Below the pieces are notes generated by a model, which saw nothing but the letters and a program-made list of their open reading frames with translations, searched no databases and was not told where the DNA came from. Below, piece after piece: positions 4,910-7,075 of a stretch of DNA of 13,689 nt (its first letter is position 1; every line of letters starts with the position of its first letter). The DNA lies in the NCBI GenBank assembly GCA_036337435.1, contig JAYZEG010000079.1, positions 1-13,689 of the forward strand. Reading direction: 5' to 3'. A program made the translations under genes and the position numbers. Source of the stretch: Myxococcota bacterium. GTDB lineage: Bacteria > Myxococcota_A > Bradymonadia > UBA7976 > UBA1532.

Positions 4910-7075
4910 TTAGCGCTGAATTTTCAGGGTCCAGCTGACTCTCTTGCCTGTATCCAAGTGGGCCAGATCTCTGATGTGCAAGTACCAACGACCGTCTAAT
5001 TCGGCACCATTAAATTCGTCGATCTTGTACGTGCGGTTTAGGTCATCTTCGCTCCCGCCTTCCCGATTATGGATCACTTTTGAAATTTGACCTTTCTTCA
5101 ATGTGATCTCGAGGTCTGAGAGATAGGTATGCTCGATGTCGACAGCCAACTCCAAGCTCTGTACGTGGCCATCAGAGTCGATGTCGATATAGCTGTTAAT
5201 TCCGTCGACATTGTTGTCGGGGATATCAGCCGAATTGTCGTTTTTGTATTCCTCGAACACGACATCGGTTTCAGGTTCAGCGTCACCCATAATGAACTCG
5301 AGCTTCCAGGCGTTGAGCGTTCCGATGTCAGCACCGTGGTGGTCACTCACCCGCAACCGCCAATCGCCCGCGATACCCGCAACCCCGTCGAGGGAAAAAG
5401 TCTTCTTCAGATCGTCAGTAGAACCACCCTCGAGGCGGTGGAGAACATGTTCCGTTCCATCTGGGTTGCTGAGGATGACCTTGAGGTCTCCGACGTAGGT
5501 ATGGGTGATATCAATACTGACCTTTATGGCACTCGCAGAACCGGAGCCATTTACTGTTAGCGTATGGGATATCCCTGCTGGGTTCTGGTCTGGGATCTCT
5601 AAATTGATTTCGCCACTGTCGCGTGTAATCAGGCCGTTGGTGGCCCCCATTGGATCGGTCTGCTCAGTTTGAGACATACGACCAAGTAATCGAATCTGTT
5701 CGATACTGACAAATCGATTGCCTGAAATGGGCCGGAAGGGGAGCCAGACGAAATCCGGATGGTTCTCGATTGACGCGCCGTACCATTCGCCTCCGACAAT
5801 CTCACCGCCTTTCACCTCAAGAATATAGGTATAGCTGTCATTACGGCTATATCGAGACAAATTCTCCGCACCCTCGGGGATTGCAGATGCGTGAGACTCC
5901 GTGATCCAATCGAGTGTCGCACTCACCTTGAACAATTGGTCGATGTTGCGATTATAGCAGTAATCGCCGTTTTCTAGATGTACACCCTGAACACAGTCTG
6001 TCGCTGCCGCTGGGTCAACTTTCAGCAATTCATGCGCCTGTTGTACGTTGATCTCTTCGAGAGTATTTACGGTGTAGCCTTTGACGGGCTGATTCCAAAC
6101 CTCGTAATTGAAGGTTCGGTCTTCGACGAATCCACGTTTCTGCAGGCCGAGCAAGTTCGTCATCGCGACATGAAAAGACCCTGCATTGAGATCGCGGCAT
6201 TCGTCACTTGTAATGCGTCCGGTCGATTCATCTCTATCGACTTCGCGATCGTTACAGCGACCTCCGATGAGTGATGCGTTGGCCCGGTCGTATATGACAG
6301 CGTAGAGTGCTTTGATGTCACCAACGGTAAACACGATATCACCGAATTCAGTGGGTATGGTGACTGGGTGTAATGGCTCTTTCTCCAGAATCGCAGCCGG
6401 TGCCCATGCGTGGCAAAGACCCCACCATGTTTCAACACCGCCCCGATTGCATCGATTTTCGCAAATGGTTTTATCGGACTCTGATTCAACGTCCTGACAT
6501 GCTGTCATGCATTCGCTTTCTGGTTTAGCATTGCACCGATCGTCCAGCTCACCGGCTAAGATTGCATCGCGGGTCTCCTTGTTGCCCTTCTGTTCAGACA
6601 CAAAGTGCGCCGACGGGCCCAACTTGTCATAATATTCGGGATCGAAGGAATCGGCCGCGCAGTTGGTGCTATCAAACGGCTTTAGGTCACGTACGCTATT
6701 TGGGTCCCATCCATGGAAAGCCGCATCATACTTTTCCATGGGTGACAGATCGGAAAGAAAATCATCGGTTTTTTGCCACCGTGCATTTGTCGAATCCTTG
6801 TAGGTAGGCCAGTAAGTATCTGGCCAAGCGGGTGTCTCGCTCTCACCATTGAGGGGCAGATCAGCGAGTGTCTTGTTCATTTCGACTCGAAGCCCATCGG
6901 GATTATTCCTGTAATTCCATGCATCGAACTTCCAATCGACCATTTTCTCGGCCGCATTTCCTTGTTCGTCCGGTTTTTCATTGGCTGTTCTGGGCTCTTC
7001 GATGCTGCCACAAGCCGTGAGCACTGATGTTGCGACAACAGTCGCCAGAAGTCTTTTTACCGTCCGTCGATTCAC
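4910..7075 (-). CDS. Lipoprotein transglutaminase of the oomycete GP42/TGase_elicitor type with two C-terminal proprotein-convertase P-domains
   Basis: Lipobox VLTAC (Cys22). Family motifs WPDTYWPTYKDSTNARW, LSPMEKYD, TWWGLCHAWAPAAILEKEP (Cys221-His222), DIKALYAVIYD, RDLNAGSFHV, Pep-13-like VWNQPVKGYTVNT, YTYILE..GEIVGGEW and HPDFVW. There are two P-domain repeats (ITHTYVGDL...GDWRLRVSD...GTLNAWKL; IEHTYLSDL...GRWYLHIRD...WTLKI). GTG start with a strong SD. Confidence 0.92.
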   Translation of the reverse strand: MNRRTVKRLLATVVATSVLTACGSIEEPRTANEKPDEQGNAAEKMVDWKFDAWNYRNNPDGLRVEMNKTLADLPLNGESETPAWPDTYWPTYKDSTNARWQKTDDFLSDLSPMEKYDAAFHGWDPNSVRDLKPFDSTNCAADSFDPEYYDKLGPSAHFVSEQKGNKETRDAILAGELDDRCNAKPESECMTACQDVESESDKTICENRCNRGGVETWWGLCHAWAPAAILEKEPLHPVTIPTEFGDIVFTVGDIKALYAVIYDRANASLIGGRCNDREVDRDESTGRITSDECRDLNAGSFHVAMTNLLGLQKRGFVEDRTFNYEVWNQPVKGYTVNTLEEINVQQAHELLKVDPAAATDCVQGVHLENGDYCYNRNIDQLFKVSATLDWITESHASAIPEGAENLSRYSRNDSYTYILEVKGGEIVGGEWYGASIENHPDFVWLPFRPISGNRFVSIEQIRLLGRMSQTEQTDPMGATNGLITRDSGEINLEIPDQNPAGISHTLTVNGSGSASAIKVSIDITHTYVGDLKVILSNPDGTEHVLHRLEGGSTDDLKKTFSLDGVAGIAGDWRLRVSDHHGADIGTLNAWKLEFIMGDAEPETDVVFEEYKNDNSADIPDNNVDGINSYIDIDSDGHVQSLELAVDIEHTYLSDLEITLKKGQISKVIHNREGGSEDDLNRTYKIDEFNGAELDGRWYLHIRDLAHLDTGKRVSWTLKIQR

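Follow-up and report, generated by a model that had tools for sequence, protein, structure and literature searches.

A lipobox-bearing member of the GP42 transglutaminase family with tandem P-domains in a Myxococcota genome

We analysed a 13,689-nucleotide (nt) stretch of contig JAYZEG010000079.1 from a Myxococcota bacterium (assembly GCA_036337435.1), referred to here as the window; all positions are those of this whole stretch. Its minus strand carries a gene, hereafter the enzyme gene, whose product belongs by sequence and motifs to the family of GP42, a protein described as a transglutaminase (PMC9879208, PMC4915311). We hold with moderate confidence, arguing by analogy with GP42, that this product is a lipid-anchored cross-linker of the GP42 type in a marine Bradymonadia-type bacterium (Myxococcota). 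Its family (by sequence), its intact motifs, its architecture and its distribution are established directly.

The enzyme is a sequence homolog of GP42. Its only solved sequence relative is GP42 chain 3tw5_A, matched at E 1.7e-43 by the single sequence and at E 4.1e-80 by a profile of 48 aligned sequences, which are full-length homologs with 39-84% identity. Two Pfam families were found in the protein: TGase_elicitor (PF16683; E 6.2e-64, 216.5 bits against a cut-off of 25) and P_proprotein (PF01483; E 5.9e-32, 110.1 bits against a cut-off of 21), the latter in two stretches. Aligned with one another, these two P-domains show 34% identity (E 1e-20), and the scores for both families and for the repeat are far beyond chance. 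No further Pfam family was matched at E<=0.01, and none in NCBIfam. The open reading frame (ORF) runs uninterrupted for 721 codons from its GTG start, and the product has the same length as its 84% identical homolog P0006. An earlier note, made from the letters of this DNA, had proposed a membrane-anchored GP42 homolog fused to tandem P-domains and had suggested a Pfam search as a check. The homology is borne out by the matches above and by an intact Cys-His pair, both Pfam families were matched, and the ORF, the LTAC lipobox, the WWGLCHAW and DIKALYAVIYD motifs and the two P-domains all lie exactly where that note had placed them.

The catalytic Cys-His pair is highly conserved. We assessed conservation in three sets: the 48 close homologs, 145 diverse representatives, and 118 oomycete-like homologs. 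The position of Cys221 is occupied by Cys in 48/48 close homologs, in 137 of the 141 diverse representatives that cover it, and in 118/118 oomycete-like sequences; the corresponding counts for His at position 222 are 48/48, 127/141, and 118/118. Chain 3tw5_A has a Ser opposite Cys221, which we take to reflect the crystallisation of an inactive Cys-to-Ser mutant of GP42. Judged by their presence in 48/48 homologs, the catalytic residues (Cys221, His222, Asp253, and the VWNQP core) are under selection. Furthermore, the stretch equivalent to Pep-13 has 8 of 13 residues in common with the peptide as printed in PMC9879208.

The protein is probably an active acyl-transfer enzyme. A contrary idea is that it has no catalytic function and has kept just the GP42 fold, as an adhesin or a structural lipoprotein. 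The pair is indeed lost in some family members, since 4 of the 145 representatives are without the Cys and 14 without the His. The enzyme and all 47 homologs aligned with it, however, keep Cys221, His222, Asp253, and VWNQP, which is the pattern expected of an enzyme, and we regard a purely structural role as very improbable.

Asp253 is most likely the better candidate partner of His222. According to PMC10318531, the GP42 family falls within the papain-like cysteine peptidase superfamily; the His of GP42 directly follows the Cys on a helix, and its partner is either an Asp from a neighbouring non-core helix, to which it bonds, or an Asn of strand beta-2, with which it interacts. The earlier note had named Asp263, at the end of DIKALYAVIYD, as a candidate catalytic residue. 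This residue is present in the enzyme, but its column varies across the family: D31/N17 in the 48 close homologs and D56/N32/T19/E8/S7/A5 among the 145 diverse representatives, against D in 116/118 oomycete-like sequences. At position 263, oomycetes thus keep the Asp, and bacteria tolerate other residues. Asp253 lies ten residues upstream and is D in 48/48 close homologs, 141/141 covered diverse representatives, and 118/118 oomycete-like sequences, and we prefer it over Asp263 because it is invariant family-wide. The other possible partner of His222 is Asn328 in the VWNQP core, found in 139 of 144 covered representatives. Since Asp253, Asp263, and Asn328 are all kept in the enzyme, its catalytic residues are complete whichever one partners His222.

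The enzyme carries a conserved lipoprotein signal. Cys22 of the lipobox is present in 48/48 homologs, and the residue before it is A or G in 48/48. The genome encodes the lipoprotein-processing genes lgt (PF01790, E 2.8e-58) and lspA (PF01252, E 1.2e-40), which are adjacent genes on contig 41. In Myxococcus xanthus, Lys at +2 is described as marking inner-membrane lipoproteins and Ala at +7 as marking matrix lipoproteins (PMC3222651). The enzyme has Gly at +2 and Pro at +7, and among the 48 homologs Lys occurs at +2 in 0/48 and Ala at +7 in 3/48. An outer-membrane location is favoured because +2 is Gly rather than Lys; by these sorting residues the enzyme is probably an outer-membrane lipoprotein, on rules borrowed from a distant relative. 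Of the description of the enzyme as surface-tethered, the lipobox is borne out (Cys22 in 48/48), but not the surface position, as an outer-membrane lipoprotein could face either way.

Pfam and PDB matches begin only at about residue 60-65, and residues 23-44 would act as a flexible tether. The protein has ten cysteines besides Cys22 and Cys221, which suggests a disulfide-stabilised protein located outside the cytoplasm, in an oxidising compartment.

The own genome, which is 87% complete, encodes four TGase_elicitor proteins. A lipobox is present in each of them, and their P-domains number 2, 1, 1, and 0. The three paralogs of the enzyme lie on contig 71 (L001) and contig 55 (L002 and L003), have 1, 1, and 0 P-domains, respectively, and in each of them an acidic loop of the DxDxDG type immediately precedes the catalytic motif. 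The four proteins are 38-57% identical to each other.

A cysteine-rich insert replaces the DxDxDG-type loop in the enzyme. Aligned with its paralogs, the enzyme shows in place of this loop an insert that is about 18 residues longer and holds four extra cysteines. The same exchange marks the clade to which the enzyme belongs (identity above about 53%). Among the 48 homologs, the region before the motif contains DxDxDG in 22 sequences, at least four cysteines without DxDxDG in 17 (this clade), both in 0, and neither in 9. Among the 145 representatives, the corresponding counts are 24, 69, 0, and 31, with 21 sequences that have no strict catalytic motif. This mutual exclusion suggests that there may be two ways to hold the same loop, by metal or by disulfides; we take the DxDxDG pattern to be a calcium-binding signature.

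The enzyme may not need calcium. GP42 is calcium-dependent according to PMC9879208. Because the DxDxDG-type loop of the paralogs is absent from the clade of the enzyme, this property cannot be assumed to carry over from GP42.

P-domains behave as a mobile accessory module that the catalytic domain does not appear to require. Both TGase_elicitor and a P-domain are present in 119 of the 120 best full-length matches, a figure biased by a query that itself contained P-domains. Under the same bias, the 81 related ORFs in 79 loci have two P-domains in 37 cases, one in 31, three in 3, and none in 10. When the search was made with the enzyme domain only, 37 of the best 150 representatives had at least one P-domain and 113 had none. 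Copy number ranges from 0 to 4 across sets, and the presence of a P-domain changes at least 16 times on a 154-row FastTree tree. By a crude pattern, a lipobox-like sequence is found in 90/150 enzyme-domain representatives versus 12/118 oomycete-like homologs. The fusion of P-domains to this enzyme is common in Myxococcota and is not new to databases.

P-domains might not be targeting modules but might stabilise the catalytic domain internally or gate it. In kexin and furin, the P-domain packs on the catalytic domain, and in animal transglutaminases the C-terminal beta-barrels cover the active site until activation. A role of this kind would be in keeping with the several P-domain residues that are invariant across the 48 homologs, and with the placement of P-domains within genomes, where 4/4 matches in the own genome and 9/15 in three genomes of the same genus fall inside TGase paralogs. 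The same genome, however, holds a paralog with the TGase domain only, 113 of the 150 enzyme-domain representatives do without a P-domain, copy number is as variable as described above, and P-domains occur in related genomes that have no TGase_elicitor match (e.g., G111, G141, and G146). P-domains would thus be dispensable for the catalytic fold, given that the other paralogs of this genome carry one at most, and we consider the stabiliser or gate role distinctly unlikely. The pattern of the own genome, in which P-domains are exclusive to TGase_elicitor enzymes, was rejected as a general rule, since relatives contradict it. We also rejected the identity implied by NCBI, which names such proteins “proprotein convertase P-domain-containing protein”: two P-domains are present, but no subtilisin-like (S8) domain was found by Pfam or NCBIfam, and the database name is misleading.

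The steps through which a lipid-anchored cross-linker would act can be outlined from these features; here activity, chemistry, location, and the P-domain role are what we infer. The signal peptide would be cut at the lipobox and Cys22 lipidated via Lgt and LspA, so that the enzyme would hang from a membrane, probably the outer one, by a 22-residue tether. In a papain-like core, Cys221 at the start of a helix would be the nucleophile and the adjacent His222 the base, oriented by an invariant polar residue, which conservation suggests is most likely Asp253. By analogy with GP42, Cys221 would attack the side chain of a protein-bound glutamine to form a thioester. Resolution by a lysine amine would yield an isopeptide cross-link, and resolution by water a deamidated residue. 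The P-domains, as beta-sandwich accessory modules, would most likely bring the enzyme into position at its substrate or lengthen its reach.

Several points weigh against this account. The sorting rules were established in a distant relative, and the residues argue solely against inner-membrane retention, so that either face of the outer membrane would fit. The calcium-type loop of the paralogs is missing from the enzyme. P-domains of characterised proteins accompany proteases, the nearest solved one being that of 3hjr_A, an extracellular serine protease (residues 448-556, E 0.0025). A literature search found no activity report for any bacterial GP42-family member. Clustering of 551 flanking ORFs from 79 loci revealed no family-wide conserved neighbour, partner, or substrate gene. 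Finally, the fold is papain-like (PMC10318531), so hydrolysis is chemically as available as transfer.

The same protein might instead be a hydrolase. The thioester at Cys221 would then be resolved by water, and the enzyme would be a thiol protease or glutamine deamidase acting on envelope or prey proteins. Such a function would suit a member of the papain-like cysteine peptidase superfamily (PMC10318531, Table S1) that carries domains typical of secreted proteases. The conserved upstream neighbours also look related to proteases: P0003 has an HExxH motif and P0004 a pre-peptidase PPC domain. Moreover, Bradymonadia are described as predators, and Bradymonadales as predators of other bacteria (PMC7188933, PMC7460792). 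On the other side, GP42, the sole characterised member, is described as a transglutaminase (PMC9879208, PMC4915311). P0003 and P0004 are kept solely in the four closest genomes and thus say little about chemistry. Counted further against this alternative is that we know of no sequence feature that separates transfer from hydrolysis. We treat a hydrolase as a possible but, on balance, unlikely alternative to the cross-linker.

A more elaborate version of the cross-linker reading can be composed from the features described here. In it, the clade would have converted a GP42-type enzyme gated by calcium into an outer-membrane cross-linker that needs no calcium and is stapled by disulfides, with the four-cysteine insert replacing DxDxDG. 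Its tandem P-domains would dock on the products of P0003 and P0004, and the outcome would be a covalently cross-linked, protease-resistant, hydrolytic surface layer for predation. This combination is highly speculative, and we think it improbable.

The enzyme differs from GP42 outside the shared domain. GP42 of Phytophthora sojae (3TW5) is cell-wall-associated and is like the enzyme in its domain family, its Cys-His pair, both candidate Asp residues, and the VWNQP core. It is, however, a secreted eukaryotic glycoprotein with neither lipid anchor nor P-domain. The cysteine-rich insert before the catalytic helix also sets the two apart. Of the Cys274/Cys293 pair, which is conserved in the bacterial enzyme, Cys274 occurs in 1/118 oomycete-like homologs and Cys293 in 0/118. 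P-domains are found in 0/118 of these homologs, while PAN/Apple domains are present in 5 of 120 listed (P0303, P0304, P0327, P0347, and P0360). By these domain contents, eukaryotes and bacteria appear each to have added their own accessory binding modules to the enzyme domain.

The closest likenesses in architecture are among Myxococcota. Homologs from Bradymonadia, Sandaracinaceae, and other Myxococcota have the same combination of lipobox, TGase_elicitor, and P-domain, as does FIV42_10680 (P0042) of Persicimonas caeni, which is 41% identical to the enzyme over its full length. Compared with other Myxococcota homologs, the clade of the enzyme is set apart by the four-cysteine insert and by a conserved upstream pair, P0004 and P0003. 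The P-domain (PF01483) is shared with kexin/furin convertases and bacterial kexin-like proteases; the enzyme differs from these in having no subtilisin-like domain and in bearing two copies of the P-domain, joined to a cysteine-type catalytic domain. Bacillus Tgl (PF20085) and Streptomyces MTG (PF09017) are listed as separate groups of the same papain-like superfamily (PMC10318531, Table S1), and would share the reaction of the enzyme if it is a cross-linker. The enzyme itself has no Pfam match to PF20085, PF09017, or Transglut_core (PF01841) at E<=0.01.

GP42-type domains are widespread in bacteria. A search with the enzyme domain only, among representatives of 50%-identity clusters, returned 2439 matches at E<=1e-3, 1613 at 1e-10, and 331 at 1e-30. 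For the GP42 family, PMC10318531 (Table S1) gives 1017 sequences from bacteria, 5 from archaea, and 226 from eukaryotes. A pattern scan of species-representative genomes gave at least 569 confirmed loci; the titles of the best 80 are mostly Myxococcota lineages or “Deltaproteobacteria” metagenome-assembled genomes (MAGs), and the closest among the matches listed is 83% identical. In an even sample of the phylum, the domain is present in 87/301 genomes and 72/209 genera, and in the own family of the window it is present in 11/14 genomes. A protein atlas contains further clusters, with Pseudomonadota and Bdellovibrionota as the commonest phyla. Bacterial homologs had been described in the earlier note as known from marine Vibrio; their bacterial occurrence is confirmed, but a scope as narrow as Vibrio does not hold, given the 2439 representatives and the 87/301 genomes of the phylum. 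This wide distribution also weakens the published view of oomycetes and marine Vibrio as sole holders. One of the 79 related loci (L082) carries the title of a Nocardioides MAG (Actinomycetota), most of the other titles being of Myxococcota type; it could represent a binning error or a transfer.

The four proteins of the own genome are old copies, as they fall in three separate lineages of the tree. We built this FastTree tree from 154 enzyme domains, having dropped 18 of 172 collected rows for incomplete or over-long domains. It is unrooted, its support values are weak evidence, and some of the metagenomic proteins in it may be truncated. The enzyme pairs with a Bradymonadia protein (support 100), and a single branch (support 97) separates the 11 named oomycete and related sequences from the rest.

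The bacterial side of the GP42 family is far larger than the oomycete side and is without a characterised member. Oomycete GP42 enzymes are the source of the plant immune trigger Pep-13, and PMC7773600 states that no further biological role of theirs has been reported. The enzyme gene represents, cleanly and intact, the design that is commonest in Myxococcota, namely lipid anchor, enzyme domain, and P-domains. Neither this architecture nor its bacterial occurrence is new to databases; the literature search found no paper on the architecture or on the occurrence, and the statement that lipobox, TGase_elicitor, and P-domain together have no characterised function agrees with that search. Newly noted here are the set of four lipoprotein paralogs with 0, 1, 1, and 2 P-domains, and the replacement of the DxDxDG loop by a four-cysteine insert. 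The three paralogs, which have fewer P-domains and another loop ahead of the active site, are natural comparison proteins, and they make the triad Asp, the contribution of the P-domains, and the need for calcium addressable. The enzyme gene is thus less a surprise than a good experimental entry point into a large uncharacterised family.

Parts of the gene occur in marine metagenomes. Fourteen DNA runs from nine studies contain 22-69% of the sampled words of the gene; 13 of these runs are labelled as marine or seawater metagenomes and one is unlabelled, and one may be the source sample. Six short contigs with at least 99% identity lie inside the gene and come from four RNA-library runs of four studies. 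They are a weak hint of transcription, as DNA carry-over is possible. In these four runs, whose shares exceed 0.05, most of the gene and of the window is without cover, which has no bearing on silence. A further RNA-library contig (run X18) matches only 35 bases, 6397-6431, at the catalytic motif and diverges on both sides; it probably derives from the conserved motif of a relative and not from the enzyme gene.

Table 1. Positions of the enzyme gene, its parts, and its neighbours in the window
Feature	Residues	Positions	Strand	Basis or remark
Whole enzyme gene	721 aa (amino acids)	4910-7075	-	GTG start, TAA stop included; ORF list and translation
Purine-rich, ribosome-binding-like AGGGAGGGA		7082-7090	-	7-15 nt 5' of the GTG; direct sequence reading
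Lipoprotein signal peptide	1-22	7010-7075	-	Basic n-region, hydrophobic core, lipobox LTAC (19-22); Cys22 codon 7010-7012
Charged Pro/Glu/Lys-rich tether, anchor to enzyme domain	23-44	6944-7009	-	Sequence
GP42-type (TGase_elicitor) enzyme domain	~45-470	5666-6943	-	PF16683; 3tw5_A over residues 65-120 and 195-457
Clade-specific Cys-rich insert	~176-212	6440-6550	-	Cys181, 189, 193, 205, 209; paralog alignment
Catalytic motif WWGLCHAW	217-224	6404-6427	-	Cys221 6413-6415, His222 6410-6412; aligns with Ser-His of chain 3tw5_A
Asp253, invariant acidic residue	253	6317-6319	-	Start of DIKALYAVIYD (253-263); conservation
Asp263, candidate of the earlier note	263	6287-6289	-	End of DIKALYAVIYD; present, variable in the family
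Pep-13-equivalent stretch	326-338	6062-6100	-	Aligned to GP42
VWNQP core	326-330	6086-6100	-	48/48 homologs
P-domain 1	~493-594	5294-5599	-	PF01483 best stretch 516-594; genome-wide match 5294-5530; internal repeat
P-domain 2	~617-719	4919-5227	-	Second PF01483 stretch; genome-wide match 4919-5161
P0004	786 aa	9428-11788	-	Lipobox LVGC, 32 cysteines, C-terminal PPC pre-peptidase domain (E 2.8e-13); Pfam
P0003	677 aa	7398-9431	-	Lipobox-like SIGC; HExxH then G..D at 7596-7631; sequence
P0002	759 aa	2547-4826	-	Lipobox-like CIAC; begins 84 nt past the enzyme gene; ORF

The enzyme gene lies in a lineage-specific cluster. It is the third of four successive minus-strand genes (P0004, P0003, the enzyme gene, and P0002), whose products all have a lipobox-like N-terminus, and an OmpR-type response regulator is encoded upstream. 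The stop of P0004 overlaps the start of P0003 by 4 nt, which suggests coupled translation. The order P0004, P0003, enzyme is kept in the three closest loci, and P0003 is also found in a fourth, with enzyme identity down to 58-64%; it is not kept in any more distant locus compared. P0002 is at the same place in the related loci L006 and L008 and not in L007. The P0004-P0003-enzyme cluster may denote a shared function or merely a shared ancestry. Among the flanking ORFs, Ser/Thr kinases are the sole family that recurs in more than four loci (12 loci), and we rejected them as partners since this can be put down to chance in kinase-rich genomes.

The neighbouring proteins gave few further matches. 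P0002 and P0003 had none in Pfam, NCBIfam, or PDB sequence searches, and P0004 had none in the PDB sequence search. P0004 shows a weak, sub-threshold NCBIfam match to a T9SS sorting domain (17.5 bits against a cut-off of 23) that is probably noise. In the atlas, P0003 falls in Myxococcota ‘hypothetical’ clusters and has a weak lead (0.81) to architectures with TIG and Peptidase_M66.

A 322-nt gap lies 5' of the enzyme gene and leaves room for its own promoter. A consensus scan found no promoter-like site on the minus strand in this gap; across positions 4500-7600, promoter and terminator sites were no more numerous than in shuffled sequence, and Rfam gave 0 matches in the whole window. The gap between P0003 and the enzyme gene contains a hairpin at 7259-7274 that has a run of T in plus-strand orientation and an A-rich one in minus-strand orientation; it was scored just as a plus-strand terminator-like site, and it could end transcription of P0003.

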